DNA of 50,754 bases, taken from contig JBEWZL010000082.1 of assembly GCA_045837725.1 (NCBI GenBank), positions 1-50,754 of the forward strand. Reading direction: 5' to 3'. The position numbers and the translations under genes were made by a program. This DNA is from Vermamoeba vermiformis (Eukaryota). The notes below the pieces were generated by a model that was not told where the DNA came from, did not search any database, and saw only the letters and a list, made by a program, of their open reading frames with translations. Below are positions 2-34,661 of this stretch, piece by piece (the first letter of the stretch is position 1; the number at the start of each line of letters is the position of its first letter).

Positions 2-160
2 TGTAGTGAGTCGTCCGAGTAAATAATGAGGCGTGGTATTCAGTGTAAGATAAGGCTTAACAAGCCTGATTTTTATTTAGGTATACAAATACAGTTTATC
101 AACCGACGGAATCACATCTGTGAATCCGCAGCACGTGGAGTGTAGATCTACTCCACTACA
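2..160 (-). repeat. 3' LTR (159 bp)
   Basis: TGTAGTG...CACTACA terminal inverted repeat; base-for-base identical to 6512-6670; minus-strand AATAAA. Confidence 0.97.
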
Positions 161-175
161 TTCCTCCCTTCTTTT
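161..175 (-). promoter_or_regulatory. Polypurine tract (PPT)
   Basis: Minus strand AAAAGAAGGGAGGAA directly abuts the 3' LTR. Confidence 0.9.
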
Positions 176-205
176 AATTGCTCCCCTATATTAGAGTGGT
201 CAGCT

Positions 206-3200
206 CTATCTTCGACGCTGTGCGTCTTGAATCTCGACGTCAAATGTCTCTTCGAAATTTGCTAGACACGTTCTTAAAAAGTCAATGAACTCGTCATGAT
301 TTTTAAGAGCGGTAATTTGTCTTGCAAAATTTCTTATTCTGTTACTACCGGTAATATTAGGTGAAGTAAAGATATTCTTTAATTCCTTTTTGACAGGTGC
401 TATATTTAGCGACGGATCCTTATCACGATATTGAACATAAACGTCGACAAGAGCATTATATAGCTCCTTTTTATGTAAAGGTTCGTTCCACGTTTCAATA
501 AACTCTGATTTCGGAATTTCAACCGGTGGATTTGGTGCGATATTTTCAGAATAGAATTGTGGTAATTTTTCCTTTACTGGTTCGACTTTATTCTCTACCT
601 TAGGGTAGTGAATATCATGTATTCGGCGTTTAACGTCCTTAATTAGAGGTTTTAATTCGTTGTTATTCATTTCCTCCCTTCTTTTAGTTAATGATGCTTT
701 TAACGCCTCTAGTTGATCAATATTACCAGATTCATCTATAATTTTGCGAATAATATCGCTATCCGATAATATTGGTTCATAATCTGTCATTGGAATATCG
801 ACGAAATTCGGATCTGGTACTGGAACTATGTCCTCGACCTGATTCGTAATTTCGCGCATTACTGGTAGCTCTACGTATTGTTTCTCTCCTCTTTCAACGG
901 CAGGGTCAAAACTGTCGTTCTCGTGTAATGAGACGAATTCTTTAGGAGTACCAAGCACTGAGGTACACGGTTTTAGGCGGTCTACGTGCACTGTCTGCTT
1001 GAGTGTCGTACCATCTGGTTTCATTAATCGATAGTTAACGGGACCTACTATCTCTTTAATCCAGTACGGTCCTGACCATGGTATACTAAGCTTTAATTTA
1101 GGTGCGTCAACACCTCGTGCCGGCCAGTAAAACCACACTCGTTCACCCAACTCGTATGAAACATCTCTTCGATTAAGGTTATAGTACTCCGTCTGTCTTT
1201 CACGAGCGAGTTTGAGTCTATTCGAAACATCTGCGTGCATGTTTTTAATTCTTTCCTTAATGGCTTCGAGACCATTCTTACTACTCGTTAACAATTCTAA
1301 TGACACATCGGGAAACTTAAAGTCAACCAATGGGCGCGGTGAATATGTTCTTAATAACTCGAACGGCGAGTAGCCAGTTGAGGTATGTGGTGTGTCTCGG
1401 TATGCGTATTGTACGAAGGGTAAGAACAAATCCCAATCACCTTGGTTGTCATGTACGTACATCGATAGCATTACGCACAACGTGTGGTTAAACCTCTCAG
1501 TTAAACCATTAGTTTGCGGATGATACGATGTCGAAGGAGCATGTTTCACTCCTGACGCTTCAGCTAGCGCCTTAAATACTTGACTCATGAATTGTGAACC
1601 ACGGTCGGAGATTATTCTCGACATGGGTCCATATTCTAACAACACTTTCAAGAATTTCTTCGCTACTGTTAACGCAGTAATATCTTTTAAGCGGAAGCAA
1701 ATAGGGAATTTCGTAAAATAGTCAGTGAAGACTAGAATGTATCTATATTTACGTGGTGTCATCGGTAACGGTCCGAGAATATCAACTCCTACTATATCGA
1801 ACGGGTGTTTCGCTTCGATGGCTTGCATTTTTCCTGCTTTCAAGACTCGTGGGGTCTTCTTAGCGATACACTTTACGCAACTGCGCACGTGATCACTAAT
1901 TGATTTGTACATTTTCGGCCAAAAATATCTTGATGCGATCAAATCGAATGTCCTTTGAATACCTTGATGGGCACCCAATGGATCATTGTGGAAATAATGC
2001 AATATTTCTTCACGATACTGTTCTGGTACTACGAGTCGAAGTCCAGCTGTCACTGAATGTTTTCGTTGCGGATAGTATCCGTGATACAATACTCCATCAA
2101 CCATGCAGTACAGTTCTGATTCAACTAGTATTCTCTTTGCGACGCGTCTATTATTGGGTAAGTGATCGTCTTTCAGATACGCAATAATTTTTCGCAATGT
2201 ACGATCTTTGCTTTGCAATTTTGCTAATTCCTTCGGATCAACAGTATCAGCGAATGTATCGTAGGATTGAATAAGGTTAACGGGTAGTCTTGATAACCCG
2301 TCAGCGTTTGCGTTCTGTGCTCCCGGTCGCGCTATCACGTCAAAGTGATAATCGCTCAGTGTCATTCTCCATCGTGCGACTCTACCGTTATGATTTTTGA
2401 ACGAATCAATATGCTCTAACGGTTTGTGATCAGTCATCACGACGAATTTCTGACCGTATAAGTACGCAAAAAAAAAAAAAAAGTGTTTAATACTCTCGAC
2501 CATTGCTAAACACTCTCGTTCCATGATAGCGTATTTCCTTTCACTATCGGAGAATTTCTTTGAGAAGTACGCGATGGGATGTTCACTATTGTCGTAGTAT
2601 TGAGTTAATACTCCTCCCATCCCATAGTCACTCGCATCCACTTGTAGAACGAACGAAACGTTCAATCTTGGGTACGCAAGGACTGGTTGTTTCGCTAACG
2701 CTTTCTTTAACCTGTTAAATGACCGTCTGACATCACTATCAATACAAAAAGGTGCATTCTTACGCAATAATTCGGTTAACGGTCGACTTATGCTGGCATA
2801 ACCACGAATAAATCGCCTGTAATAACCTGTCATTCCTAGAAATGCTTTGACATCAGTAACGCTTTGCCATAAATCGATATCTAACTTGTTAATCGCTTCA
2901 ATCTTTGTCGGATCTGGCGACACGCCGTTGAAATCAATCTTATGTCCTAGGTACGTAGTACTATCTTCACCGAACGAACACTTGGAACGTTTCAGTTTCA
3001 AATTAGCGTTTCTTAGTCTATCAAATACACATCTAAGATGGACCATGTGTTCTTCGAAAGTTCGTGAGAAAATCAAAATATCATCGATATATACGAGACA
3101 CATTTTCCAATTCAATCCTGCTAGTACCAAGTTCATTAAACGTTGGAATGTCGCTGGCGCATTCGTTAGGCCAAACGGCATCACGTTATATTCGTAAGAG

Positions 3201-4780
3201 CCTTCCTCCGTTATGAAAGCTGTCTTTTCTTTATCTTCTTCAGCTACTGCGATTTGATAATAGGATTGAACCAAATCGAGCGTAGTGAAATATTTCATGC
3301 CATCAAGACGTTCTAAAACATCTTCGATGCGCGGAATTGGGTACACATCTTTCTTCGTTACGCTATTCAGCTGTCGATAATCGACGCAGAATCGTTTAGT
3401 ACCGTCTTTCTTTTGTACTAGCAGAATTGGACTAGACCATGGTGAACTCGATGGTCTTATAATACCAGCTTCGAGTGAGTCTTGTATATACTTCGATACG
3501 AAAGCCTTTTGACTTATTGGCGTCCAATAAGCTCGTTGTTTGCGAGGTGGGCCGTCAGTATAAATTCTATGCGTAACTAGCGGCGTAGTTGATCTAATAT
3601 CAACGGAAAACAGATCTTTATATTCCTCTAGGAATTCGATCATGATCTTTCTCTGTTCTTCTGTTAACCGTTTCGCAATTCCCGAACTAGAAGGTTCATC
3701 AACCGGCTTGGAATTAGAATGGGCGTCTTTGATAGAGGTTACCCTCTCATTCGAATCTTTCAAACGCATTTTCTCAATTTTCCGAGTCAGTTTCAGAACT
3801 TTGCGTCGAATCTTACGGGGCATATCATCTGGTGATTTATCACTCTTTGATGTATCTACGTAAGCAGAATCAGTATTTCTACTATCATCAGTGGTTTTGA
3901 CACTGTTCGACGAATCATTCGGCTTCGCAGCATTAGTCTTTTCTTCAAGGGCATTGAGCGTCAGAGCCTCTCCTTTCTCATCGCACCATATCTTTACATT
4001 ATCTGACGCATATGCTATTGGTAGATTGCCCGAGATACTCAAACAAACGTTATGCGAAGTATTGGTGATAAAGACATCGACGTAACCATCTTTGACAGTC
4101 CGTAATTGCAATGGTACTTGTCCATGTGAGAGTTTGAACTTCGTCGATTCTATCAAATAATCACCATCTTTAACTACACCTTTAACCTTTGCTTTCACGT
4201 TCATTCCTGAAAGCGGTTTAATTACAGCTCGTTGTACTGACATTACGAGTTGACCAGGCGGTTCTACCAACGCCGTAGTCACTCTGTTCGATGTTCCCTT
4301 TAGCACCTCGTCGGCCTTATCACTTACACCGGGTCGACTAAGCTCCTTTCGGGGCCAGATAACCTCGCCTTCGCACACAATGCGAGCTCCAGCAGCATAG
4401 AGTACGTTAGTCCCAATGATAAGTGGGAACGAAATTTCGGGTACGTACAAAGCGTACACTCTGATTGGCGTTGCCACCAATTGGATTGTGATATCCACGA
4501 ATCCTTTGACGGGCATTAGCTCGTCGTTAGCGGCTTTAATCATATGCCCGCTATCAGTAGAAGTCACGACCAAGTTCAAAGAGTCAACAAGCTTTTTATT
4601 TATCACTGTTACAGCAGCACCAGTATCGATAAGAGCTCTCGGTACTGTGCTTCCATTCACGACCACTTTCGCTTCAGCGACATTGCTAACAGTGCCTTTT
4701 GGAACAGTTATCGTTGACAAAGTCGCGACAATGAAAGGGTTGTCTTCGTCAGTTGACTCTTCTGACTCGGTCGAATCGAG
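206..4780 (-). CDS. pol: Pol polyprotein: aspartic protease, reverse transcriptase, RNase H, integrase with GPY/F motif and C-terminal extension
   Basis: LIDTGA (PR); RFCVDYRQLN, MPFGLTNAPATFQ, YIDD (RT); VDASDYG, TDHKPL, NANADGLSR (RH); HHCC, SDRGSQF, NGLTERFN, WSGPY (IN). The frame is open from 4780, directly after the gag stop; the ORF track's 4720 start is TTG. Confidence 0.96.
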   Translation of the reverse strand, partial: LDSTESEESTDEDNPFIVATLSTITVPKGTVSNVAEAKVVVNGSTVPRALIDTGAAVTVINKKLVDSLNLVVTSTDSGHMIKAANDELMPVKGFVDITIQLVATPIRVYALYVPEISFPLIIGTNVLYAAGARIVCEGEVIWPRKELSRPGVSDKADEVLKGTSNRVTTALVEPPGQLVMSVQRAVIKPLSGMNVKAKVKGVVKDGDYLIESTKFKLSHGQVPLQLRTVKDGYVDVFITNTSHNVCLSISGNLPIAYASDNVKIWCDEKGEALTLNALEEKTNAAKPNDSSNSVKTTDDSRNTDSAYVDTSKSDKSPDDMPRKIRRKVLKLTRKIEKMRLKDSNERVTSIKDAHSNSKPVDEPSSSGIAKRLTEEQRKIMIEFLEEYKDLFSVDIRSTTPLVTHRIYTDGPPRKQRAYWTPISQKAFVSKYIQDSLEAGIIRPSSSPWSSPILLVQKKDGTKRFCVDYRQLNSVTKKDVYPIPRIEDVLERLDGMKYFTTLDLVQSYYQIAVAEEDKEKTAFITEEGSYEYNVMPFGLTNAPATFQRLMNLVLAGLNWKMCLVYIDDILIFSRTFEEHMVHLRCVFDRLRNANLKLKRSKCSFGEDSTTYLGHKIDFNGVSPDPTKIEAINKLDIDLWQSVTDVKAFLGMTGYYRRFIRGYASISRPLTELLRKNAPFCIDSDVRRSFNRLKKALAKQPVLAYPRLNVSFVLQVDASDYGMGGVLTQYYDNSEHPIAYFSKKFSDSERKYAIMERECLAMVESIKHFFFFFAYLYGQKFVVMTDHKPLEHIDSFKNHNGRVARWRMTLSDYHFDVIARPGAQNANADGLSRLPVNLIQSYDTFADTVDPKELAKLQSKDRTLRKIIAYLKDDHLPNNRRVAKRILVESELYCMVDGVLYHGYYPQRKHSVTAGLRLVVPEQYREEILHYFHNDPLGAHQGIQRTFDLIASRYFWPKMYKSISDHVRSCVKCIAKKTPRVLKAGKMQAIEAKHPFDIVGVDILGPLPMTPRKYRYILVFTDYFTKFPICFRLKDITALTVAKKFLKVLLEYGPMSRIISDRGSQFMSQVFKALAEASGVKHAPSTSYHPQTNGLTERFNHTLCVMLSMYVHDNQGDWDLFLPFVQYAYRDTPHTSTGYSPFELLRTYSPRPLVDFKFPDVSLELLTSSKNGLEAIKERIKNMHADVSNRLKLARERQTEYYNLNRRDVSYELGERVWFYWPARGVDAPKLKLSIPWSGPYWIKEIVGPVNYRLMKPDGTTLKQTVHVDRLKPCTSVLGTPKEFVSLHENDSFDPAVERGEKQYVELPVMREITNQVEDIVPVPDPNFVDIPMTDYEPILSDSDIIRKIIDESGNIDQLEALKASLTKRREEMNNNELKPLIKDVKRRIHDIHYPKVENKVEPVKEKLPQFYSENIAPNPPVEIPKSEFIETWNEPLHKKELYNALVDVYVQYRDKDPSLNIAPVKKELKNIFTSPNITGSNRIRNFARQITALKNHDEFIDFLRTCLANFEETFDVEIQDAQRRR

Positions 4781-6487
4781 TCAGTCATCTCTCTTTCTCT
4801 TTCCAAGGTAAGGGCGATCACGATCATCATAATGACGATCTTGGTGACCTCCGCGACCTCCTTGGCCATAGCCATCACGGCGATCTTGGTGTCCTCCGTG
4901 ACCACCTCGACCTCCTCTGCCACCTCTGCCACCTCTGCCGCCTCTACCACCGCGAGTACCGGTTCTACAGTCTCTCGCGAGATGGTTCCTGCCGCCGCAC
5001 TTGAAACAGACGCCTGCATTTCGGAGTGCGTTAAGCATCTCAACGAAGTTAGGCACTGCATCTGTCTCATCTTGTTCCGTGTAGACTTCAAGTTGCGGTT
5101 GAGGGGCTTGCACGACGTTCACCTTGGCGGGGGCTGGAGCTGGCGCGTCGATGAGCTTGAGGTTCTCGTGGTCAACGACCCATTGTGTCATGGCCTCGTA
5201 GGACTCGAGTCGATCCAGGTTGAGTTCAGCTTGGGCACGCATCGCTGGCGGTAACTTGTCCAAGAGTAACAAGATCTTGGTTTGTTCGTCACAGTCAGCA
5301 TGGTGAATGAAGCAATGGTTGAACTCGGCGATGAAGATCGGCGCAGATCGTCGTAGATCCCAACGATAGTTGCGAGCAGCTTGTTGAGCGTGCATTCTAT
5401 TGCCAGGTGATGGATAGGTTCGCAAGAGCCAGTTCGCAGCTTGCGTGATTGAAGCAGTATTCACGTCATATCGAGAATTAAATAACGCTCGTGGAGCGTC
5501 ATCCAGGCATTCATGAAAGAAAACCACTTTCTGTCGATCCGATAAATGGTTTGACGTGCATATGCTCAGAAAGTTCGTTAACCAAGTCTTCGTGTGCCCG
5601 TTGTTGGTCTCGGGGTTGAAGATTTTAAGATTCTTTGCCTTTCTTGCTTGATCAAGACTACTGGATTTCTCCGGTGGTACAAAACCTTGCGCAAAAGGTT
5701 GAGAAGCTGGTTGGGGTTTCTTTGGACTCGCTTTTGGAGTAACAGGGACAGGTCTTTCGGTTTCTCGAGTTGCATCCAAATTCGCGGTTAGATTCGCGAT
5801 CTGACTGGCGACTCTACGGTCCACCAATTCTTCTAAATTTCGAGAATCAAAGGAGCGACTTTCAACATCCTCTCTCCACAAACGTAAAACATCATCAACG
5901 GTTAAATCAGCATCGCGTGATAAATCGTCGATGAAATTTCGTACGGAATTTGTCGGTTGGCCTGTAAATTGATTAACCGTCTGGGAGTTATCCCTTCTGG
6001 ATTCACCAAATATAGGTCCTTTCTTCGCGGGTGTCTTTGGCGGAGTCACCTTCGCGTTAGGTGTTTCGGCACCAGATTTGGCCGTCGATCTGGGTGGAGT
6101 ACTCGTCTTAGGTGCAGACGCTGGCGTAGTAGTTGTCTGACGATTCTCTTGTTGTTCTCCACCGGGTTGGCGACGCGTTGCTTGATCATACGTTGCTGCA
6201 AAACCTTGTTCAAGCTCCTGGCGGATCTGATTCAGTTGCTCCTGCAGTACGTTGTCGATGTTCATAGGCTGGCCGTTATTATTGTTAACACTTGTGTTGA
6301 TTGCAGCAGGCTCAACTTCCATTGACTCGATGTTGACAGGCGTGTCATCGACGTCATTGTGAACAGTTGTGGCAGTCAGTGTAGGCGGATCAGCAGTTGG
6401 TACTTCAGCAGCAGGAACGGTTCTTCTATTTCCCCTCCCTCTTCCTTTGGCGGGAGTCTTAATGTGCGGAGATGTAGCGCGAGACAT
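4781..6487 (-). CDS. gag: Gag with CCHC zinc knuckle and RGG-rich nucleocapsid tail
   Basis: CFKCGGRNHLARDC knuckle, (RGG)n tail, capsid-like central region; first ATG at 6487 (the ORF track's 6511 start is TTG). Confidence 0.93.
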   Translation of the reverse strand: MSRATSPHIKTPAKGRGRGNRRTVPAAEVPTADPPTLTATTVHNDVDDTPVNIESMEVEPAAINTSVNNNNGQPMNIDNVLQEQLNQIRQELEQGFAATYDQATRRQPGGEQQENRQTTTTPASAPKTSTPPRSTAKSGAETPNAKVTPPKTPAKKGPIFGESRRDNSQTVNQFTGQPTNSVRNFIDDLSRDADLTVDDVLRLWREDVESRSFDSRNLEELVDRRVASQIANLTANLDATRETERPVPVTPKASPKKPQPASQPFAQGFVPPEKSSSLDQARKAKNLKIFNPETNNGHTKTWLTNFLSICTSNHLSDRQKVVFFHECLDDAPRALFNSRYDVNTASITQAANWLLRTYPSPGNRMHAQQAARNYRWDLRRSAPIFIAEFNHCFIHHADCDEQTKILLLLDKLPPAMRAQAELNLDRLESYEAMTQWVVDHENLKLIDAPAPAPAKVNVVQAPQPQLEVYTEQDETDAVPNFVEMLNALRNAGVCFKCGGRNHLARDCRTGTRGGRGGRGGRGGRGGRGGHGGHQDRRDGYGQGGRGGHQDRHYDDRDRPYLGKRKRDD

Positions 6488-6499
6488 GTTGAGATTCGT

Positions 6500-6510
6500 C
6501 GGGCGCACCA
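6500..6510 (-). promoter_or_regulatory. Primer binding site (tRNA 3' end complement, possibly tRNA-Gly)
   Basis: TGGTGCGCCCG one base after the 5' LTR; TGG pairs with tRNA CCA. A GCG-initiated acceptor stem with discriminator A fits eukaryotic tRNA-Gly (inference). Confidence 0.8.
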
Positions 6511-6511
6511 A

Positions 6512-6670
6512 TGTAGTGAGTCGTCCGAGTAAATAATGAGGCGTGGTATTCAGTGTAAGATAAGGCTTAACAAGCCTGATTTTTATTTAGGTATACAAAT
6601 ACAGTTTATCAACCGACGGAATCACATCTGTGAATCCGCAGCACGTGGAGTGTAGATCTACTCCACTACA
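6512..6670 (-). repeat. 5' LTR (159 bp)
   Basis: Identical to 2-160; followed on + by GTACC, the candidate target-site duplication (base 1 = C agrees). Confidence 0.97.
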
Positions 6671-6969
6671 GTACCAAGCAAGATCTGCGACAAGACGAAG
6701 CCCTGGTGAACCCCTCGAAAGAGCGCGAACAAACACTCGTGAGCAGGCAAGAAGGCACGGAGTTAGCCCATAAATTAGGCGCCGTTGCCTACCTTGAGTG
6801 GTAAGTGCAGTGTCGTCGTTCCTATTGTAATAGTCATAACTAATTAGCACGTAGCTCTTCATTGACGCAAAGTGGTGTTAAAGAAGTGTTTGAAACGGCG
6901 CTCGCTGCCTCTGTCAAGATGAAAAGGCTGACTGGACAGATCCGAGACCGAGAGTGTGCCATGATGTGA
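6671..6969 (+). pseudogene. 3' half of a Rho/Rac-family small GTPase gene interrupted by the retrotransposon
   Basis: (G)TKQDLRQDEALVNPSKEREQTLVSRQEGTELAHKLGAVAYLEC / intron 6801-6854 GTAAGT...TAG / SSLTQSGVKEVFETALAASVKMKRLTGQIRDRECAMM*: G4 TKxD, G5-like ECSS, Rho insert and CaaX box. Confidence 0.9.
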
Positions 6970-7195
6970 AGCTACAGTCGCCAAGGCGAGTGCTTATGTA
7001 GAATAGTGCCTTTTAAAAAATCGATCTTTTTATTGGTTCGCCTCTTCTCGATATTGCAGTTCTGTCGTTTTGTGTGAACCCTAACGAGCGTGTGCTCGGT
7101 GTGCAAAAAAAAAAAAAAAAAGCTGGAAGGAAATTACCCATTTTAATTATCAAAATAATACGCTCTCCACAACAGGTTGCAAATAATATAATAAA

Positions 7196-9448
7196 ATGGT
7201 AAGTTGAGCATTTAATTGTGGATTTGGCAAGTTTGAGTAGAGCTGGACTAATCCGCCATTAGGAGAGGTCCTCTCGTAGCGACAGAGATAGTCAACGAGA
7301 CAGTCAAGATAATGCTCTGCTTGAAGAAGACGAGGAGAATAATGAATGGGAGATTGATACAGATGATGAGAAACATAAAACAACCTGTGGTGAGCGGATC
7401 TGCCGAAAGGTAAATTAATTTAATAGCTTCAAAATAATACCAATTATGTGCCTTCGTTTCCGCTGATTAATTATTAATTTAAATTTTTTCGAATTTATTT
7501 TTCGAAATTTTGCGCCAGATCCGTACTAACTCCTTATTTACCAACCATAGAAAAGGCACCGTTATTTATTTGTAGGAGTTGGTGGTGGATTAGTTGTGGC
7601 TGTTATATTGACGGTATTTTTGGCCGTCACCATCCCATCGATTATCAGAAACAATCCTCAATCATCAACAAGGTATGCAACAAAATAATAATAATTAATG
7701 CTCAAATAATTATGATGATTTAATCAATAATGTACAACCCTTCAACTTTCAGATCCGAAGATCTGCAGAAAATTCTAATTTCATCAACCAGTGCAATTTA
7801 ATTATTCGGATAATATTATATTTATACAAATAGTAATCCTTTATTTACAATAATTAATCTTTTATTCAATTTAACAGCAGAGATATTTTAATTTTGATCT
7901 CCTTCGATGGCTTCAAATACGACTACTTAAGCAAAAAATACACGCATCCAAACTTCGATAAATTAATGTCACAAGCTATCACTGCCCCAATCAAGCCTGT
8001 ATTTCCGACTAAGACCTTTCCCAATCATTATTCGTTGAGTACGTATTCCAACACGCACCTTTACAGTCATAAAATCACACTGAATTTTCATTATAATACT
8101 CATTTAGACATAATCCCATCATTTAATATAATAACAGTGCCTATTAGATATTGTATATGATATTGTTATAGTATTAATTGTTCTTGTCTAGTCACGGGCC
8201 TGTATCCAATTCACCATGGCATCGTGGATAATTCATTCTACGCGCCAGAGCTCAATCAAACCTTCTACTATCGCAATTACACAACTCAAAATCCCGCGTT
8301 TTGGCTTGGAGAACCTTTTTGGAATACAGTCAAAAAAGCAAACATGAAAAGTGCTACATTATTTTGGCCCGGATCTGAGATCTCGATCAACGGTCAACAG
8401 CCCGATTTTTGGTAAATACTCATACATAGTTATTTAAGATTATGATATCTAACCTGCACAAGGATGGCGTATGATGGTGCAATGACCGTGTCAGAGCGCA
8501 TTGAGCGTGCCATGGACTGGCTCGACAGCGATGACAAGCCACAGTTTGTGACCGTAAGACACATACGACGTGATTATACTCGCCAGTCTAACACAACATC
8601 ATAGCTCTATTTCGATGGCATTGACACTGCAGGACACATCTATGGTCCTGATTCAGTTGACATGGCGGTATGACGCGTGCAATATTTCACGCATGATTTT
8701 GTAATGACATTTTGACACGTTAGAGCGCGATTACAAACTACGCAGATGACGCGTTGGGTAAATTAATGAGCGCCATTGCAGTTCGCACAACTGCGTTAAT
8801 GAAGTTCAAGTTGGTCGTGGTTAGTGACCACGGCATGGCTCAAATGAGCGAGTCACGTGTCGTTTTTATTGAAGACTACGTCAACCTCACTGATGTCAAC
8901 GTGTTGCGCTGGTCACCTGTAGTGCAAATGTGGCCTAAAGATATGAATATGTTAGATAGTATCATGACCAGCCTGTCCAAGTAAGTCACTTGAACCTTTG
9001 TTTGACACGTGTCATTTTTTAACTTCGAATTAGCCTCTCGAACGCTAAGGCCTACAGAAGAGAAGAACTTCCTGTTGAATGGAACTACTCGAATAGCTCA
9101 AGAGTGGCACCTATTGTTGGTATGTATTGAGTATAAGTTATTTTGAGTTTAACTAAGCGTTGTGAAGTCGTCGCGGATCTGGGTTGGACAATCACCACTC
9201 GATCGTATTTCAGAGCTAATTGGTTTAAATTCAACGGTGGTGATCATGGCTTCGACCCTAAGTACACAGAAATGAACGGCATATTCATTGGCAAAGGTGA
9301 ACCATTCCTGTCAAATGCGACGTACAGCCAGATCCAGTCCGTTGACGTGTACAATATTCTCGCCCACTTGCTTAATGTCACATCGTATGCGGCACCCAAT
9401 GACGGATCGTTTTATTGGGACATGTTTACCAATACTACAACTCCTTAA
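7196..9448 (+). CDS. Ectonucleotide pyrophosphatase/phosphodiesterase (ENPP/NPP family), type II membrane protein, multi-exon
   Basis: LISFDGF, PTKTFPNHYSL, FWPGSE, DTAGHIYGP, VVSDHGM, GDHGFDP motifs; N-terminal TM (FVGVGGGLVVAVILTVFLAV); first coding exon is only ATG. Confidence 0.93.
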
Positions 9449-9889
9449 ATACTGATGTAAATACATATTTCTCGTTTACATCTGTGCCCTTATAATTATT
9501 ATTATCATGCCCTTCGATCCTATTATTCTATTGCTTTAAAAACTGGATGGTATAAAAGCGAAATTACACAAGGGAACCATAAAACCAAATAATGTTCTAA
9601 AAAGCTTTAAATGCAATAGAAAAATCAGTGTAAGTAGTATTTACATGTAGTATAGATTTGTAACGCCAAGGCAATAATACCGCAGCAAATTTTGACCGAG
9701 AAATTAAAAGTTGACATCCCGAACACCGAGCCATTTGCGGAATTGATTCTCGTGTATTGCACGAACATTAGCATAATGTATTGTCTTTCTTAGATTTTTC
9801 TGCCTTGCCTGGTTGTTTTCGAAGATTGTGTCACAAATACAACCGGTTTAAATTCAAGGCCACTGTCTGTCCACCACAATTGCTTACTA

Positions 9890-16933: not shown

Positions 16934-19900
16934 TTACGACTGAGGGCCTAAAGCCTGGATTTCAGACTGTTGCGGATGATCCATGGAGTGACCGTTGGGC
17001 AGATCAGATTGCGTAGTTTCAACAACGTAAGTAGTCGTAGTAGATTGTTGATGGGATCTATCCGTCAGCGAGTTTCTATCCGTTGTCACACGCGGCGAAA
17101 CAAGGCCACTGGCGCCAATATCGTTCAAGTACGAGAGCCTGTCGCTCGGGAAGAACGGCGTCACGAGATTCTTCATGACTTGGTTCTTGAGAGGGGTCTC
17201 AATAGGAACCAAAGGAGCTTTAGAATCGGGTGTTGGGTTGGTCATAACAGCGCTCGTATTGTTGGTGCTCATCGGGGTTGTGCTGTTGACTGGAGTCACG
17301 GGAGCGGAGGCAGAGACTTGAGGAGACTGCACGGACAACTGAGGAACACCAGTAGGCTGCACAACTGATATATTGGGCATTGTTTGCACGACTTGAGGGT
17401 TGGGAGGAGCAGTCACGACAGGCTGAGGCACGAAGTGTGACGGCATGCTGACGTGGGGTTGCATCGAGACACCAGCAGCCAACAGCTGTTGTTGTTGAAG
17501 CAATTGTTGTTGCTGCAATTGTTGGAGTTGTTGCAATTGAGGGTTCTGCTGTTGCAACTGAAGTTGAGCCAGCTGTTGTTGCAATTGCGCAACTTGCAAG
17601 GGCTGTTGCATCATCATCGGTTGTTGCTGAGGAACACCGAGTTGAAGCAACTGAGGATAGAGCTGCAACAAGGTTTGCAACGGGATCGTCGTGCCGTTGG
17701 GCAGAGTAACTTGCTGTTGCAATTGTAATTGAGGTGCCAAGAACAAAGCATTGAGCAAGTTCTGATCGAGCTGCACTTGAGGTTGCGGCTGCTGAACGAC
17801 TTGTTGACCGGTGTACTGTTGTGCTTGATTGGGGTCCACAACTTGCTGAGGCACTTGTACAGGTTGTTGCACTTGCACGGGTTGCTGAGTTACTTGCTGT
17901 GTGTACTGTTGCGTGGCAAACTGTTGGGCCTGGTTCGGATCAACAACTTGTTGGGGCACTTGTACAGGTTGTTGCACTTGCACAGGCTGTTGAGTCGGTT
18001 GTTGAACATAAGTCTGACTGTTGGATTGCATCATTCCACCAGGAGTCATGAGCATTCCTGGTTGAATCACTGCAGACGACCGCCGAGAACCTTCGCCTGC
18101 TGAATGGTAAGGAAGTCCCATCAGCTGTTGGGCCAATAGATTTTGATCGATAACGGGTTGTTGAGGTATTGTCATAGGTGTCTGTACAGGTAGAGGTTGG
18201 TTGATAATGGGTTGTTGGATCATGCCAGGCTGAATGACGGGCTGTGCAATTGGCTGCGCAATAACAGGCATAGACTGGATGGAAAGCTGTCCGCCAGCCG
18301 GGTTCGAGCCACGAAGCTCGGGTGTGTTAAGGCCAGATCCAGGTACTGAAGTTGGCAAAACAGGCATCGAAGTCGGTTGTCCCATAACCATAGGCTGTTG
18401 AGGAATGTTGACTTGAGGTTGCAAAACCATGCCTGCTTGCGTGGCTTGAACGGGCATCGAGGTAGGTGCCATTCCTTGATTAGAATTCATGTACGTGTGG
18501 AACGCGGATCTTGAAGTATCAGGAGATCCGACGTGACTGCCACCGTTACCAGTGCCTTGGCCAGAAAACGACGTGGAAGGAAGCATCATCGGCGGGGAGT
18601 TAGGCAAGTTCATGCCGTTCAAGGCTTCGTACATCTCAGGTGAAGTGAAGAGGCCTTCAAACCTGCGATCACCTTCCAGCATGACTGACCTGCGCTGTTT
18701 CTTGCGTTCTAGCTCTTGAAGTTCGTAGTTTTGTCGCTCTAATAATGCTTGGATTTGACCTTCTAAAACCTTTCGCTCGCTGTCGTGCTTTGATTTCAAT
18801 TCTTCTGCGATTTGGCCACTGACTTCGAGAGGGGCGATAGAACCAACTACTTGGACGGACATGCGCTTGAGAGCCTTATCGTCAATGTGAGTCATGCGAG
18901 GTGTAAGAACCTGAGCAAGGCCAGCACTCAAATGCTTTTCACGCGTCGTGAGCTCGTGTTCCGGTGAGGCGGCTGTGCCAGATTCAGCGCTGCCAGTAGG
19001 CTCTTCGGGTACAGCAGGGTTGCGAGCAGCGCTATCCAGAGCGATGTTTGGCCTTGAGGGCGAGGCTGTAATATGGAAATCTGTCTTGGAAGTCTTGCGG
19101 AAATGACGCTTGATTGTGCCTTCGCCAAGTGCACGCTTGACGCTCGCTTGTTTGCGAACCCACTCATCAACACGGTTCTGAATGTAGCTAGATACCTTGT
19201 TAGTGTGTTGTTCTGGCAGACCGAGCTCGTGGATCAATTCGATAGCGACTCCAGTAGCAGTATCAGTGAGCAAGTGGAACTCGAATTCGATATCAATAGT
19301 CTTCTCGGGTGTTGTTAATCTGAGCTTCATGGGAATAGTGAACATCGCTTCTTGCTTCTTGTCGTCGTCTCCCATGTCGGAAGCGGCGTCGTCAATGTTG
19401 TTTCTGACTTCGGTCTTGAACCGAGGAATGACAGGTTGAGAAGTCTGTCTGCGTAAGTTAGCTTGACGCTTCTTGGCCAAGCTGTCTTCAGACTCGGGCT
19501 GAAGTGTGTCCAACGAGAGGTCATCGTCAGAGTCCTCTAAGTATGTATCCAAAAGCCGTGATGGAGGCCCACTAGTGGACAGAACTGCTGTAGCAGGATT
19601 CAAGCTTGGCAGATTAGGATTCTGACTTCGGCTAATGAAGCGCGTGCGTTTGGTTTCCTTCTTTTCAGAGGTGCCAGAGCCAACACTTTGATTGCTTGTC
19701 TTTCTTGACGGAATATCGTCGAACTCATCATCGTAGGCTGTGATTGGCACGGGACTCTCGCCTCTGCTACCAGTCCTGCTGACTGTTCGGCTACGCGACG
19801 CTCTGATATCCAAATCCGCAGAGCTGTTGAAGTCATCGTCTGATGTCAAATCGTTGTCACTGTATTCAGAATCAATTCCAGAAGACGAGTTGTTTCCTCG

Positions 19901-21639
19901 AAGAGGCGGTGACATTGGCTTAGTCATAGACACAGGGCGCGAGGAACCCGAGGACCCTGATTGCTTTGGTGTGACCAAGAAGTTGGCTGAAGTTTTGTCG
20001 TCATCCGATGAAGGGCTCATTGGAGCTATGTCGGTAGCTGTAATTGTAGGATCAAAGGTCATAACTGCAGGATCTTGTTGAGCAAGCCAGGCGTCAATCT
20101 CTTCGTCAGATCGCATGTCCAACAATCTGTCATTCTTGTCGTCATCACTGCAGGTCAGGAACGGGTGTCGAAGCAATTGTGCGGCTGACTTTCTGTCACG
20201 AGGGTTTGTTAAACAGTCCAACAGGAACTGAAACACTTCAGGGTCTTTGATTCTAGCGAGTGCGCGAGGTCTTTGGCCCTATAAGAAGTACTTTAATACC
20301 TACGCTCGTGCTAGCACTTCGAAAAAATGAAATTTTCTTACCGAAGAAACTTTCTTGAAAATTGATGCTGGGTTCGAGCATTCGCTATAAGGATATTCTA
20401 GCGTGACCATCTCTAAGACTGCCATGCCAAAAGCCCAAATATCGACTTTTTCGTTGTATTTCTCTTCGTAGAACTCTGGAGCCATAAACTCGGGTGTACC
20501 AATGATACTGAGCGGGGCTTGAACTGTAGCAATGGTAGCTAAGCCCAAATCTCCGATTTTGACTTCGCCGAGCGTGCCATTAATGAAGATATTGTCGCAC
20601 TTAATATCACGATGAATAATGGGAGAGGGACGCGTGTGCAAATAATTGAGGCCTTCTAGAATTTGAATGCACCAATTTTTGATTACGCGCAGCTTCACTT
20701 TTGTCGCCTTTCGAATAAACCTACGCACGGAACATGATTAATATGATTGCAACACCGAATAATTCCACGCCAAGCTAAAAGTTGTATCGAAAATTCGCTT
20801 TGGTAAACTTTTGGTAAAAAAGTTCAGGTCTTGCAAAAAAAATTGCAATTCCCTATCGGGACCAATTTAATTTTAGTACTATAATTACAGAAATTTGAGA
20901 ATTATATTAAAGAATAAGAGTACTTACTGCCTTAAAGTGCCTGAGGTCATGCACTCTGTAATGAAATTTAATTGCAATTTTTCTTCGTCGACCCAAGAGT
21001 GGTAGAAAATGATAATATTAGGGTGATTGAGCGATTGTAGCAATTGGATCTCTTTGTAGAGCTTGTCAAGATCCACGGAACGTGATAACTTGATTTGATT
21101 CCATGCTACTTCGAGTCCTCGATCACGATCAATGGCTCGATAGACGATCTTCGAAGCGCCACGGCCAAGTTCATCATTTCCCTATTTAACGCATAGGTAT
21201 TAGTATAAAAGAATAATATAGAGAATAGTAAATGAAATTACAGTCAGAAATTACAAACAAAAATAATTTTTCATTAACGAGGCGCAATCATGCAATTATC
21301 TTGAAATTTGGCTTTGTATCGTGCAATATGCTATAATTGAGTAGTATATTATGATTTTATATCGAAGTCTTTAATAATTTAATGAATAGTCCTTCGATCG
21401 AAATTAGTGATCAAAAAAAACCGTTTGTGTAACGGGATTTGCTCTGAATATTTAAATTATATCCCTAATAAATTATATACGAACACATTTTGTCCAATTC
21501 GTGCATACTATCGATTGTACAAAGCCATTTCGATTGCTTCGTAGCAATCCAAGAATAAAAACGACTAGCTTACCCTAACATAACGACCAGTAGGGTCTGT
21601 TTCAACAACTTGGTCTTGTCCAGAATCTGACTGGGACAT
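16934..21639 (-). CDS. WNK: WNK-family Ser/Thr kinase with long disordered Q/P-rich tail
   Basis: [18 protein letters not shown] (Lys in subdomain I), [37 protein letters not shown]-like motif [23 protein letters not shown]. Confidence 0.95.
17816..17995 (-). repeat. Internal tandem duplication in WNK (105-bp period)
   Basis: [25 protein letters not shown] encoded twice with synonymous differences. Confidence 0.9.
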
Positions 21640-27344: not shown

Positions 27345-28746
27345 TTACAACATCAATATGATGCCACTAATAGTCAACAGCAAAGAAAGGTAGTTCGTTA
27401 CGTGAGTTACGTCGCTTGTCCTTGCTTTCGGCACGTTAGAGTTACCTTGAGGCGAGCTTGATGACTGAGGAGCAGTTGTTTGAGGACTTGCAACATACGG
27501 CGCTGATTGAGGTATTTGTTCTAATATCATTCAATCGATTAACACTAACTCGTGCATAAAGTTAATGCTGTTGCTGCTCGACTTACCAAAAGAACCGACG
27601 CGAATGAACCAAATGTTACTGCTTGCCAATGGCTGCATCACAAACACATTGAGACCAGGTACGTAAAGAAACCGCTTGTTGATGCCTGATCCAGAGCTGG
27701 GCGTAGAGGGTGGTGTCGCAGATCCCTCAGTCAAAGGCAAAGTACTCATTTCCCAACCATCACTGCCATCATTCGGAGTGATGACGTAGATACGTCCGAC
27801 CGAGGAGAGCTGGCCATAGTAGAACAGAAAGCGGTCATTCACGGGATCATAGTCCATGGCAGAGTACGTTGGAGCTTCGGAGATGAACAGATCCAGCGCA
27901 CTACTGTTTTTGAAAGTGACTTTGTACTGCGTGTCACCAGGGTTGAGTGGAATACGCGACGCTTGCACGCCTAAATCCGTATCATAGCCTTGACCGTCTC
28001 CGAACTCCAGTGTGAAAAGTTGATGACGACGCGTGTCATGTGCCCATGGCCAGCGTGCAAAGATGTTAGCAATCTTGGTGATTGGGTTTGTCAACTCTTT
28101 CTTCTCCAAATCAATACGAGTCAAGCTGTTGGCCCAAATGATGCTGCTGTTGGTTTCACGAAGTACTCCGTATCCTTTAGTGATGTTTGGCCAAGTGTTT
28201 TGCGGATCCCATTGATTCGTGTCAGGATTGAATCCGTCAATTGTGGGAAAAGCCGTACCACTTCCAAATACACCGTAGGCACCACATAGAATAATTCTAT
28301 TGATTGCAGGAACCCACATGCTGTGTTGATAGTTGTGGCGAGAAGAAGGCAAGCCATCTTTATAGTAGGCCACGTCTTCAACGACAAACTCTTGGGGAGT
28401 TGGCTGTGCGCGCATGATCCACTGTGGCTGATCGTCTGTCAGCTTAATGGAGACAACTCGATTATCATGAGAGTCATGATGACCACCGTTAGCAACGACG
28501 AACAACTCCGTGGTGTCTTCTCGAAGAACGAAGCCACCCCAAGGATCAATTGCTGCTCCTCCAGCACCGCTCGTGCCGTTGATTTCAAACCATTGATTCA
28601 TTGGCTTGCCTGCTAACCATGCTGGTTCGGCGGCCTAACAATGGTTTGAGGTAATATTCAAATGCCAATGTGGGAAAGTTGGCACTTACCGAAGTAGCTC
28701 CAACGACAGCGAAAAGAAAGAGAAGGAAATACAACCTTGAAAACAT
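27345..28746 (-). CDS. Secreted, predicted GPI-anchored beta-propeller-like protein, paralog 1
   Basis: Signal peptide MFSRLYFLLFLFAVVGA; exons 28746-28690, 28634-27587, 27520-27345; S/P/T stalk and hydrophobic C-terminus; GGHxDSxDN and DGLPSSRHNY motifs. Confidence 0.85.
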
Positions 28747-28992: not shown

Positions 28993-30380
28993 TTAGCTCA
29001 TTAAAACGAGACTGATTATCACTACTATCACTGATAGGTAGCTCATAACGGCAGAAACATCGCTCGTCCTTGCTTTCGGCACATTAGAGCTTGATTGAGG
29101 AGAGTTCGATGACTGAGGAGCAGTTGTTTGAGGACTTGCGACATACGGCGCTGATTGAGGTATTTGTTCTAACGCCAATTAATTACTACTAACTCACTTT
29201 ATGATGACAGTAGTGTCTTGACTTACCGAAAGAACCAACACGAATGAACCAAATGTTGCTGCTCACCGATGGCTGCATCACAAACACATTGAGGCCAGGT
29301 ACGTAAAGAAATCTCTTGTTGACACCAGCCCCAGGAGCGGAGGGTGGTGTCGCAGATCCGTCGGCCAAAGGCAAAGTGCTCATTTCCCAACCATCACTGC
29401 CATCGTTCGGAGTGATGACGTAGATGCGACCAACAGAGGTAAGTTGACCGTAGTAGAACAGGAAACGGTCATTCATAGGATCGTAGTCCATGCCAGCGTA
29501 CGTTGGGGCTTCGGAGATGAACAGATCCGTTGTGGAGCTGTTTTTGAAAGTGACTTTGTACTGCGTGTCACCAGGGTTGAGCGGAATACGTGCGGCTTGA
29601 ATACCTAACTCGGCATTAAAGCCTTGACCGTCTCCAAATTGCAGCGAGAAGAGTTGATGACGGCGCGTGTCATGTGCCCATGGCCAGCGTGCAAAGACAT
29701 TGGCAGTCGTGGTGATTGGCTTTGTCAACTCTTTCTTCTCCAAATCGATACGAGTCAAGCTGTTGGCCCAAATGATGCTGCTGTTAGTTTCACGAAGCAC
29801 TCCGTATCCTGAAGTGATGTTTGGCCAAGTGTTTTGTGGATCCCATTGATTCGTGTCAGGATTGAATCCGTCAATCGTCGGAAAGGCATAGGCAGATCCG
29901 TACACGGCATAAGCACCGCACATAATGAGGCGATTAATTGCCGGGACCCACATGCTGTGTTGATAGTTGTGACGAGAAGAAGGCAAGCCATCTTTATAGT
30001 AGGGCACGTCTTGAACGACAAGTTCCTGGGGAGTCGGCTGTACGCGTACGATCCACTGTGGCTGATCGTCTGTCAGCTTAATGGAGACAACTCGATTATC
30101 ATAAGAGTCTCCATGGCCGCCACTGGCAGCGACAAAAAGCTCCGTAGTGTCTTCTCGAAGAACGAAACTGCCCCAAGCATTCAGTGCTGCTCCGCCAGCA
30201 CCGCTCGTGCCGTTAATTTCAAACCATTGATTCATTGGTTTGCCTGCTAGCCATGCTGGTTCGGCAGCCTAATTTATTGATATCATTAATATTTAGTTAA
30301 TTATTTAATTCAAAGTTGGGACTTACCGAAGCAAATCCAACGACAGCAAAAACAAAGAGAAGGGGATATAACTTTGCCAT
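28993..30380 (-). CDS. Secreted, predicted GPI-anchored beta-propeller-like protein, paralog 2
   Basis: Same 3-exon layout; highly similar to paralog 1; signal MAKLYPLLFVFAVVGFA. Confidence 0.85.
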
Positions 30381-30627: not shown

Positions 30628-32620
30628 CTATACAGTAACGTACAATACAAACATAATTACAAGAGAATAGACAGGCGTCATTGCACCGCCAATAGACTTT
30701 GCATCTGCTGGCTGTTGTGGTGTCGCGGTTTTACTCGGCGCAGCAGATCTAGGCACAGCAGCTGATTGCGGCTGATTTTCGTTGCTCGGCCCAGCACTAG
30801 GCACTTCGCTATTAACTGGCGATGACGAAGGCGGCGAGGAGGTGTTGGGCGGATCAGTTGGAGAGGAGATCGGAGTATCAATAGGACTAGCAACTGGAGC
30901 TTGCGCCACCCGATCGCCATTCTCCTCGGATCCGGTCTCTTTCAAGCCTGACGAAACGAATCCTACAGTGCTCGAACCATCAGGATTGAGTACTTGGTTC
31001 ATTAAAGTCGTGTTTGAAGCACTTTGAATGAAAGTTTGAACACTTTGAGATGCTGAAGGTTCGTTGGTTCCAGAACCTGCACCAGCGATCTCGAGTTCGA
31101 GTGTGGCCAGATCCGCTTGATTGATCGATCGTTTAACACCTCCGCCATAAGTATATCCAATCACAATAATTCGAGAAGGCGAGATCTGCAGCAGAGTAGC
31201 GATCGATTGTACAATGGTTGCTATCTCCGCATCCGTCAAATTTCGCGCAGCTGTAAATGTAACGGATACTTTCAATGCTGACGGACAAAGACTATTGATG
31301 TTGGCAGTATTAATGGTAAGTTGATGATCGTCTAAAGTCCACGTCGTCGTTTGTCCATCCCAAGGAATCGAAAAGGCATTAACAGGGTAATACTCTAGTA
31401 GAAATTAGCAAGGGTGAAATATATTTTGTTTAACGTACGAGATCTGCCTGGTGCGAATGTCGTCAATTGACCTCGATCTGCATCACCTGGCGAGAAAGAG
31501 TTCTGGGGGCCTATATCAAACTGCTTGGACACACTTCCGAGATTATTATAACCGAAATGAGCTATATAAGAGCCTCCCCCTAAGTCCTCAAAGCACTCCA
31601 AAATTGGTACCAGACCAGTCGGCGCTGTACCGAACATTAATTTTCAAATTTAATTCTATTGTATATTAATATCCTTACTAGCTGTAAAGTCCCACGTAGT
31701 TATTTCTTGCTGCATATATCCACCGCCAGTTGCGCCGCTCAAGCCAAGGTAGTATTTGCCAGCTCCAAAGTACTGCGTAATGTCCAACGTGAAGGTCAGA
31801 TCCGTTGCGGTAACTGGAGCTCTAATCTAATTAAACACATCGAATTAATATCTTTAAAATGATAGACCAATAGTTTTTTTAGCTACCCGGAAACTGGATG
31901 GCGGGGAGTAGTCGATCGTAACGGTAAGCGGACCTGAGCATCGCCAAGACAACATATTCATGTCTTGCAGAAAAGGAACATTGTCGGCAGGGCCCATAGT
32001 CATGCCCACAGCGCTATATTACCAAACTCAGTAAAAGCTTAAAAAGTTTGACTTTGTATAAATTGCAATAACCATCGAGTATCGATAAAAACTAATATTT
32101 CAATGAATATTTGACCCTTTAGAGCTTATCAAAGACGTACTTTGCTTTGAACAGGATCTTGCCTTGCCAAACAATAAAGCCTACTAACGCGATGCTAGTT
32201 TTTTCAGTAAGACCCAACGAGGATCCAAACGATATGTCTTCGTTAGTATTAATTGACGGTGCAATGAAGAACGCAAAACTAAAAAAATAAAAAATTAATA
32301 CTTTAATAACAGTCGCCCACGAGATCTTACCCGTCCGCTCCTCCAGACCAGACAATAGTGTCACAGCTCGTACTTTGGTATGTTAATGTGGTAGTGAATC
32401 CATCCAATACGTTTTGGGCCTCGCTCCAGTAAACAACAGATCCGGTACCTTGTTCGGCCAAGCTTAAAATTATACTTGCTGTCGATATAGATCCGTTTCC
32501 TTGAAGTACGAAGTTATTTACAGGAATATTCGGAGCGGCGATGCTGAAATCCGCAATCGCGTGGTGCGTAAAGTAACCGAAAGTGAACAAAAATAAAATC
32601 CCTAAATTATATGACACCAT
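30628..32620 (-). CDS. Surface protein: signal peptide, L-type lectin-like domain, PILEC/FGYxN/RGQ module, SEA-like domain, GPI-like tail (paralog 1)
   Basis: FVLQGNGS, GFTTT, GGADG/FAFFI (legume-lectin-like); PILECFEDLGGGSYIAHFGYNN...DRGQLTTFAPGR; S/P/T stalk; hydrophobic end. Confidence 0.78.
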
Positions 32621-32758: not shown

Positions 32759-34661
32759 CTATAGTAGGAAAAACCCCACCACTGCTACCACCAATGACAT
32801 TGCAGTTGAAATTGAAGTTGCGGGTGAAACCCCTATGGGCGCAGTCGGCGTAGTGGTAACAGGCTGTGCGACGGGCGTTGTGACGGGTGGAGCGACAACA
32901 AGTGAGCCAGTGCCTTCAACCCCCGTTGACTTCGGATTCACCGATATGACTTCAATGGTGTTCTCGGTGCCCGGAGGATTGAGCACTTCGTTCACAAGCG
33001 TGCTGTTCGATGCACTGTTGACGAACTTCTGAACACTTTCAGCTGCTGAAGGCTCGTTCTCCGTCTGTGAATCTGTGCCACTGATCTCGAGCTCGAGTGT
33101 ACCTTGCTGACTTTGCATTATAGATCGAGCAATTGGCAAAGAAATGATCACGTAATTGACACTCGTGACCGTGACACGTGTCGCTGAAATTCCCAAGAAG
33201 TTGGCCAGGGACTGCACAATCGCGTTGAGCTGGGTATCGTTGAGATTCGCTGCAGTTGAGAAGACGATGACGACTTTAAGTGATTTGGGACAAAGAAAAG
33301 CTGTGTTGGCCGCGTTGAACCTCACAAAGTTTGATGTCAAGTTCCATGTCAATTCAGCTCCGTTCCATCCAAAGGAGAACGCACTCAACGGATAGCTCGC
33401 TACGTATAACTTCAGTATGATGCATAATATATTCATCACATATCATTTGAATAGCTAGTATTAGACTTACTGGATCTCCCACTTTGGAAGGTTGTTGGTT
33501 GACCACGATCTTGCGGGTCTGGGAAGAAGCCGTTATTTGGACCAACCTCATAAGAGAGCGGTGCCGTCGTTGGGTTTCGATAGCCCATGTATGCTACATA
33601 TGTGTCTTTGTTGGCCGGCTGTTCGTAGCACTCCAGAATCGGAATAACCTCTGGGGGTGGCGGAACTAAAATCGAATACAATTAGCACTTATAGCGTACT
33701 AATACATTTATAGTCTTCGTTTGCGTACCACCAGTGAATTCCCAGGAGGTAATTGTTTGTTTCATGAACGCCTGACCAGTCGCAGCACTTAAGCCGACGT
33801 ACAACTGCGAATATGGATCGAAATAGTTCCTCAAGTCCATAGTGATCGACACATCGAGATTTGTAGTGTTGCTCGTTATCTACGCGATTATTAGTTCATA
33901 TTCTTGTAATACTCTGAAGAGTTTTGAACATACGCGGAAAGTTGGAGGAGCGTACTCGATTTGAACGTAGATCCCGGGAGAATAACACCGCCATCCAGAT
34001 ACAATAGCATTAACCGCTGTATAACCTGCACGGGGACCCAGAATAGCTTCGGTTCTGTGGCGGGAAAAAGATTAAATACGAACTTTAAAAAAGAATTATT
34101 CTATAAACCAATTTAAGATGGTTCAAACGCATCTTTGGATGTGGAGACTACGTAGAGTTCATATAGATTACTTACGTTGCTTTGTAAACGATTTTATCGT
34201 TCAACAGATCAAATCCGACCATTGCAATATTCGTTTTATTCGCTAGACCCAATGTCCCTCCTGTAGATAATGTCTCTGAGGTATTAATTGACGAGGCGAA
34301 GAAAAATGAGAAGCTGTCAAAATAAAAATTATTAATTAATCTTTGGATCGCGCAGTCTTGCTTACCCGTCTCCGCCGCCATAATAGGGAACCACATCGCA
34401 ATCCGTGCTTATGTATAATATAGTAGCTTTGAAGCCATGTTGAACATCTTGTGCGTATTTCCAATAGACAACAGATGAGGTTGCTTGCTGGTTCAACGAC
34501 AGAATTATGTCTGTAGTCGACACAGAGCCATTTCCTTGAAATACTAGATTATCTACCGGAATACTTGGGGTTGAAATAGTGAAATCAGCTGTAACTAGAA
34601 CGGATGCGCAACAAATATATAAAAACAAAATCTGTAAAGCGACGCTTAAGTTTGGGGTCAT
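32759..34661 (-). CDS. Surface protein with L-type lectin-like domain (paralog 2)
   Basis: LVFQGNGS, GGGDG/FSFFF, YVGLSAATG, PILECYEQ...AYMGYRN...DRGQPTTFQSGR; same exon organisation as paralog 1. Confidence 0.78.

Follow-up and report, generated by a model that had tools for sequence, protein, structure and literature searches.

A Ty3/gypsy retrotransposon bordering the G4 motif of a Rho-family GTPase gene in Vermamoeba vermiformis

A contig of Vermamoeba vermiformis (JBEWZL010000082.1, assembly GCA_045837725.1) opens with an LTR retrotransposon that is followed immediately by the 3' part of a gene for a Rho-type GTPase, and the question raised by this arrangement is whether the element has inserted into the gene and, if so, what became of the gene. 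An earlier note, made from the letters alone, had read the locus as an antisense insertion into the G4 motif and as a fresh natural knockout. The window referred to throughout is the whole stretch of 50,754 nucleotides, from position 1 of the contig. The draft genome of the species has 59.5 Mb, 41.7% GC and 22,483 genes, and the ploidy was estimated as 4N, according to PMC7125106.

Four of the 24 listed sequencing runs (X1, X4, X5 and X21) were read against positions 161-9000 of the window. X1 and X4 come from one sample (S1), and X5 is an aquifer metagenome from another study (S2). X4 carried a DNA label given by guess and was treated as RNA because eight GT-AG joints were seen in it. The best-matching run, X1, holds 0.72 of the sampled window words and differs from the window at several sites, and it may not be derived from the source of the window.

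The element and its relatives

The features identified are listed in Table 1. The two LTRs are direct repeats with TG..CA ends that differ at 0 of 159 positions, gag and pol are both open, and the pol domains lie in the order protease, reverse transcriptase (RT), RNase H and integrase (Pfam positions 38-127, 455-615, 684-811 and 918-1088). This domain order, the direct TG..CA LTRs and the presence of a primer-binding site (PBS) and a polypurine tract (PPT) next to the LTRs place the element in the Ty3/gypsy group. The 13 nt of the PBS are identical in two relatives, L001 and L003.

Table 1. Features of the element, the Rho remnant and the adjacent gene
Feature	Position	Strand	Description
Left flank base	1	.	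Single C, putative last base of the left target-site duplication (TSD)
Ty3/gypsy LTR retrotransposon	2-6670	-	Complete, on LTR, PBS, PPT and domain evidence
3' LTR	2-160	-	159 nt, TG..CA, short terminal inverted repeat
PPT	161-175	-	15 purines, abuts 3' LTR; similar tract in L003
pol ORF	206-4780	-	1524 aa: protease, RT, RNase H, integrase (H2C2, core, SH3-like)
Integrase C-terminal tail	209-970	-	About 254 aa, two predicted helical bundles; candidate tethering region
A15 run	2468-2482	+	Within RNase H, in frame, 9 nt too long
TGA between gag and pol	4781-4783	-	Single, in frame, then CT; predicted readthrough site
gag	4781-6487	-	568 aa from first ATG; CCHC zinc knuckle, RGG-rich end
PBS	6498-6510	-	Begins TGG, one base inside 5' LTR
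5' LTR	6512-6670	-	Identical to 2-160
Putative right TSD	6671-6675	+	4 or 5 bp; basis, empty-site loose ends in X1, X4 and X5
Rest of Rho GTPase exon	6671-6800	+	G4 TKQD, Rho insert helix, start of G5 region
Intron	6801-6854	+	GT-AG, 54 nt, spliced out in X4 record 10
Last coding exon	6855-6969	+	Ends with CaaX (CAMM) and stop
Type I phosphodiesterase/nucleotide pyrophosphatase gene	~7197-9450	+	Multi-exon, directly downstream of Rho

Two features that might be taken for signs of decay were rejected as such. The A15 run is most likely an assembly error: the affected RNase H region reads KHFRxYL in a 99% identical sequence (P0003) and in nine other relatives, and over this region record 4 of X1 is 9 nt shorter than the window. 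The TGA separating gag from pol was rejected because it is conserved in relatives. TGA followed by CT was found in all three elements that include the gag-pol junction (two of the four relative loci fetched are without it), L001 and L003, whose pol products are 70-72% identical, read TGA-CTAG at this point, and record 7 of X1 crosses the junction with no differences. From this conservation we infer that the element makes Gag-Pol through UGA readthrough. An A17 run at 7105-7121, 3' of the Rho stop, could have been lengthened in the same way as the homopolymer at 2468-2482.

In a tree of 36 RT-RNase H segments chosen from 120 listed matches, the element falls within a clade of nine sequences with an SH-aLRT value of 100, and no informative family names occur in this clade. 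No Pfam chromodomain was found in any of the nine sequences, nor, for the element itself, on the whole of pol or on the integrase tail. The ordered parts of the tail are predicted to be all helix with no strands (mean pLDDT 68), and the tail is 32-47% conserved over its full length in four close relatives. Part of it is found in two further relatives, and the other four that were tested lack it. It gave no match in Pfam or Atlas and none in Foldseek at E 0.001, and its best structural Z, 7.7, was to generic helical bundles, which speaks neither to the absence nor to the novelty of a fold. The tail could serve as a tethering domain, and the lack of a chromodomain therefore does not show that targeting is absent.

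The exact LTR pattern gave no matches in the JGI metagenomes, three queries of viral contigs with pol gave none that was confirmed, and searches of prokaryote genomes with the right-flank pattern and with pol found nothing. Relatives of the element (the clusters of P0004 and P0005) lie on JGI contigs of 37-557 kb. Diverged relatives of gag were seen at 4893-4926 and 5156-5198, as loose ends in X1, X4 and the X21 RNA reads; families related to the element are thus present, one or more of them transcribed. A search of the open-access literature for LTR, gypsy or retrotransposon found no published description of LTR elements in Vermamoeba; one preprint refers to the genus for viral methylases only.

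A second copy of the element was seen in record 9 of X4 (depth 301), which comprises 2211 nt of other sequence, an LTR that carries a 2-nt insertion and one substitution, and then 331 nt of the 3' interior of the element, where it ends; the matches are to 6512-6670 and 161-491. The rest of the element is without matching depth in X4 and the contigs give no strand, and the record looks like a host transcript running into an element at another locus.

The Rho gene and its uninterrupted alleles

The first plus-strand bases to the right of the LTR are GT ACC AAG CAA GAT, and joining the two exon pieces gives a remnant of 81 residues (TKQD...LEC-SSLTQ...CAMM-stop) that aligns to Rac1 residues 115-178; the best 60 of 160 PDB matches are all to Rho-family proteins (best E 1.8e-4). 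The remnant has the G4 TKxD, the Rho insert helix and the CaaX box of the Rho family, and shares with Rac1 and RhoA a G4 in the context (I/L)VGTKxDLR as well as the helix and the CaaX end, though this comparison covers the C-terminal 40% of the protein, over which Rho-family membership is clear and Rac is not separable from other Rho subfamilies. Pfam gave no match on the Rho fragments, none of six candidates passed in a homolog search with the 42-aa exon as query, and no other GTPase motifs were matched within the window.

The uninterrupted site was found in three of the four runs, from two studies, with X1, X4 and X5 continuing to the left of position 6671 with the same non-element sequence. 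Upstream of the site this sequence, viewed over 30 nt in the runs and 16 residues in a database protein, encodes YWNVPFIIVG, which joins TKQD in frame; the element therefore splits the Gly codon of G4 (G/TKQD). Record 10 of X4, at 555 nt, spans the site with 258 nt on its upstream side and lacks exactly the predicted 54-nt intron, and the transcript of the empty allele extends to at least 7021. A search of 1.84 billion representatives recovered the uninterrupted exon in P0279 and in P0287, a member of its cluster. The fourth run, X21 (RNA), placed only 39 reads, all less than 95% alike and none on the Rho piece, and represents a diverged strain that is neutral as evidence. Hence, given the empty site in the runs, the spliced transcript and the two database proteins, the Rho gene is real, expressed and intact in the samples examined.

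Several of the proposals made earlier thus hold: the element ends inside G4, it lies antisense to the gene (minus against plus), the intron is intact and used, and the gene ends with a CaaX box. The 5' half of Rho that had been expected to the left of the element is present at the empty site and transcribed across it, and the empty allele sought was recovered in X1, X4, X5, P0279 and P0287. The statement that the remnant shows no decay was nearly right, as it differs by one amino acid in 42 codons; codon 6700-6702 is Ala in the window and Thr in both known empty alleles, and the exon differs from P0287 at 1 of 42 residues and from P0279 at 3 of 42. Loss of the gene on all copies was not borne out, as S1 contains intact DNA and a spliced transcript and S2 contains intact DNA, in a species reported to be 4N (PMC7125106). 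This outcome applies to S1 and S2, which may differ from the source strain of the window. The phrase "fresh natural knockout" can be retained in part, with identical LTRs indicating a recent event and the knockout limited to this allele.

The proportion of copies that might carry the insertion was examined using depth in X1, where the empty Rho contig is unbroken across the site, differs from the window by one letter and has a depth of 99.5, compared with 176-198 for the sum of two alleles of the neighbouring gene. Under a simple model a 95:95 heterozygote should show a depth of about 172 and 2:1 mixes 124-133; with no insertion 95 is expected, with 47:47 85, and with an odd 22:95 mix 99 (99.3). 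A simple 50:50 heterozygote is excluded in X1, and most plausibly the insertion is either absent from this run or on about one copy in four, the depths being contig means. Contigs with single-base deletions, at a depth of 40-67, were rejected as a sign of ploidy; four lie inside the element in homopolymers, by eye, and are likely read errors.

The junction and its explanation

The element ends exactly at its terminal CA, within the G4 Gly codon. No terminal base is common to the LTR end and the upstream flank of the empty site, and homology cannot, therefore, explain a mis-join. In a free linear cDNA, the base that lies between LTR and PBS should remain at the far end, which would put an A at position 1. 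Position 1 of the window is C, and neither end of the element carries the extra base or bases of free linear cDNA. The C fits a duplication of GTAC or GTACC, as had been proposed, though the left flank in the window is this one base, C makes up 21% of host bases (a chance of 0.21) and the flank of the second copy also ends in C. Base 1 was accordingly rejected as proof of a duplication, and the 4-5 bp TSD is put forward as a putative one. The relatives L001-L004 provided no TSD for comparison, with L001 cut inside an LTR, L003 a circular collapse with one LTR, and L002 and L004 fragments. The palindrome GGTACC lies at the centre of the target, and the flank of the second copy ends GCTAC; from these two sites alone, both would fit a 4-bp TSD with a preference for xTAC. 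Immediately upstream of the empty site, five bases repeat the first five bases of the LTR, possibly by chance.

The insertion is very probably real. The unlikely alternative is that a chimeric read, or an incorrect join at a repeat edge, linked a multi-copy element to the Rho exon and that no cell carries the insertion. No read or contig spanning the LTR-Rho junction was found among the records listed, though contigs drop variants, and the unbroken X1 contig has a depth that fits zero insertion. The window also starts one base before an LTR, as at an unresolved repeat edge, so that several copies may have contributed to a consensus for the left LTR and base 1; at least one other copy exists (X4 record 9), and the in-frame A15 error lies within the element itself. 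Against an artefact, the break falls at the exact LTR terminus where there is no microhomology to promote a mis-join, the element ends are unlike those of free cDNA and, weakly, base 1 matches the predicted duplication. A real insertion that later recombined with another copy, leaving a far left flank other than the Rho 5' half, would be compatible with the missing left flank and with a near-identical copy elsewhere whose flank also ends in C. Nothing positive indicates such an exchange, base 1 fits the expected TSD, and the LTR of the other copy has one substitution and two inserted bases whereas those of the window are identical. This is the most improbable of the explanations considered.

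If the insertion is real, it might still be on all copies in the strain from which the window came, should that strain be unlike the runs compared, with other Rho or Rac genes covering the loss. The limited agreement of the best run with the window and the private Ala at 6700 could be read in this way, and single rac knockouts are often mild in Dictyostelium, as described in PMC8305917, so even full loss of this Rho need not be dramatic. However, at the bubbles displayed for the neighbouring gene the window agrees with one of the X1 alleles, yet the sample that yielded X1 has an intact and transcribed Rho, and fixation on all copies takes time, yet the LTRs are identical. We consider fixation quite improbable.

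The explanation we favour, and regard as probable, is a recent integrase-made insertion in an expressed Rho exon that is carried by a minority of the chromosome copies or by a sub-lineage of cells, the null being sheltered by intact alleles. The anatomy of the element, the exact LTR end at the junction and the intact and spliced empty allele were observed directly; the steps that connect them are proposed. The integrase would have inserted the cDNA antisense into the exon, and the host transcript of the inserted allele would run into the antisense 3' LTR, where the chimeric frame reaches a stop 8 codons (5-bp TSD) or 9 codons (4-bp TSD) after the G4 Gly. The truncated product would retain none of the insert helix, G5 or the CaaX prenylation box and would also be missing the Lys and Asp of G4. 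By established GTPase biology a product with these losses is null, and the allele is therefore presumed to be null and would be masked by the intact alleles of a polyploid cell. Record 9 of X4 provides a model for such a chimeric transcript, from another locus.

Site choice, comparison with other elements and neighbouring genes

The TG..CA LTRs, tRNA-type PBS, PPT, CCHC gag and order of pol domains are shared with the non-chromovirus Ty3/gypsy elements (Metaviridae), from which the element differs in its clade-restricted helical integrase tail. Among amoebozoan Ty3/gypsy elements, Skipper-1, Skipper-2 and DGLT-A likewise have a CCHC gag. DGLT-A resembles the element in having a putative PBS and no chromodomain and differs in having one ORF and a location 13-33 bp upstream of tRNA genes, where the element has two in-frame ORFs split by TGA and an exonic site. 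Skipper, in contrast, has a chromodomain, and a polypyrimidine stretch replaces its PBS. These comparisons were made by description, from PMC5006619 and PMC5633606, and the tree included no named Skipper or DGLT-A sequence. An in-frame gag-TGA-pol arrangement, with CT following, has been described for the fission-yeast elements Tj1, Tcry1 and Tosmo1-3 (bioRxiv 10.1101/2022.12.06.519325); two relatives of the present element read CTAG after the TGA. The hosts belong to different supergroups, and the likeness is one of arrangement, with readthrough here a prediction.

Both sides of the empty site are Rho exon, which argues against the tRNA-gene targeting seen for DGLT-A, Skipper-2 and Ty3 (within about 150 bp). 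No tRNA genes are present in the window, the DNA further left being outside it. Though it had been claimed that the element does not avoid exons, this generalizes to a family from one site in a species reported to be tetraploid and is overstated; a single recent insertion in such a genome says little about site preference. According to PMC5006619 and PMC5633606, dictyostelid LTR elements use chromodomains or tRNA genes, and it is argued that non-targeting elements have been lost from the haploid, dense Dictyostelium genome. It is conceivable, though doubtful, that the element represents an active undescribed gypsy clade, with UGA readthrough, no chromodomain and a helical tail, that hits transcribed genes without a safe harbour while polyploidy masks the nulls. 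The second copy, seemingly in a transcribed region, fits an active non-targeting family. If this were true, a family sustained by polyploidy would run counter to the rule drawn from haploid Dictyostelium, would supply an insertional mutagen ready for use, and would allow a direct test of whether selection on the choice of target site is relaxed by ploidy. The single event is ordinary, as retrotransposons do land in exons and a polyploid cell conceals the damage. It does show recent retrotransposon activity in Vermamoeba and provides a defined locus at which the protection of this genome by ploidy, as opposed to targeting, could be tested. A family that is active could be used for mutagenesis in this amoeba, a host to bacteria and giant viruses.

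The phosphodiesterase gene downstream of Rho is expressed and spliced in X4, and two alleles of it are visible in X1. Over the window as a whole, ORF cover of 86% was rejected as a measure of gene density, since chance frames are counted. Tandem long single-ORF paralogues on the minus strand (27531-28634 and 29189-30268) resemble, by eye, bacterial-style secreted repeat proteins, a possible lateral transfer. The C-terminal exons at 30628-31404 and 32759-33442 (minus strand) are also paralogous and, with Pro/Ser/Thr-rich stalks and hydrophobic ends, appear by eye to encode surface or GPI-anchored-like proteins. An open frame of 1114 aa at 16934-20278 (minus strand) combines a kinase-like start with an extended Gln-rich region and may be WNK-like. 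The window also contains a CCT-beta exon that is identical to a Vermamoeba vermiformis protein at 165 of 168 positions and groups with tubulinean sequences in a tree of 31 rows, and a CCT-beta sequence filed under locust (P0215, on a 293-kb contig) groups with amoebozoan sequences and is probably from a contaminating amoeba.
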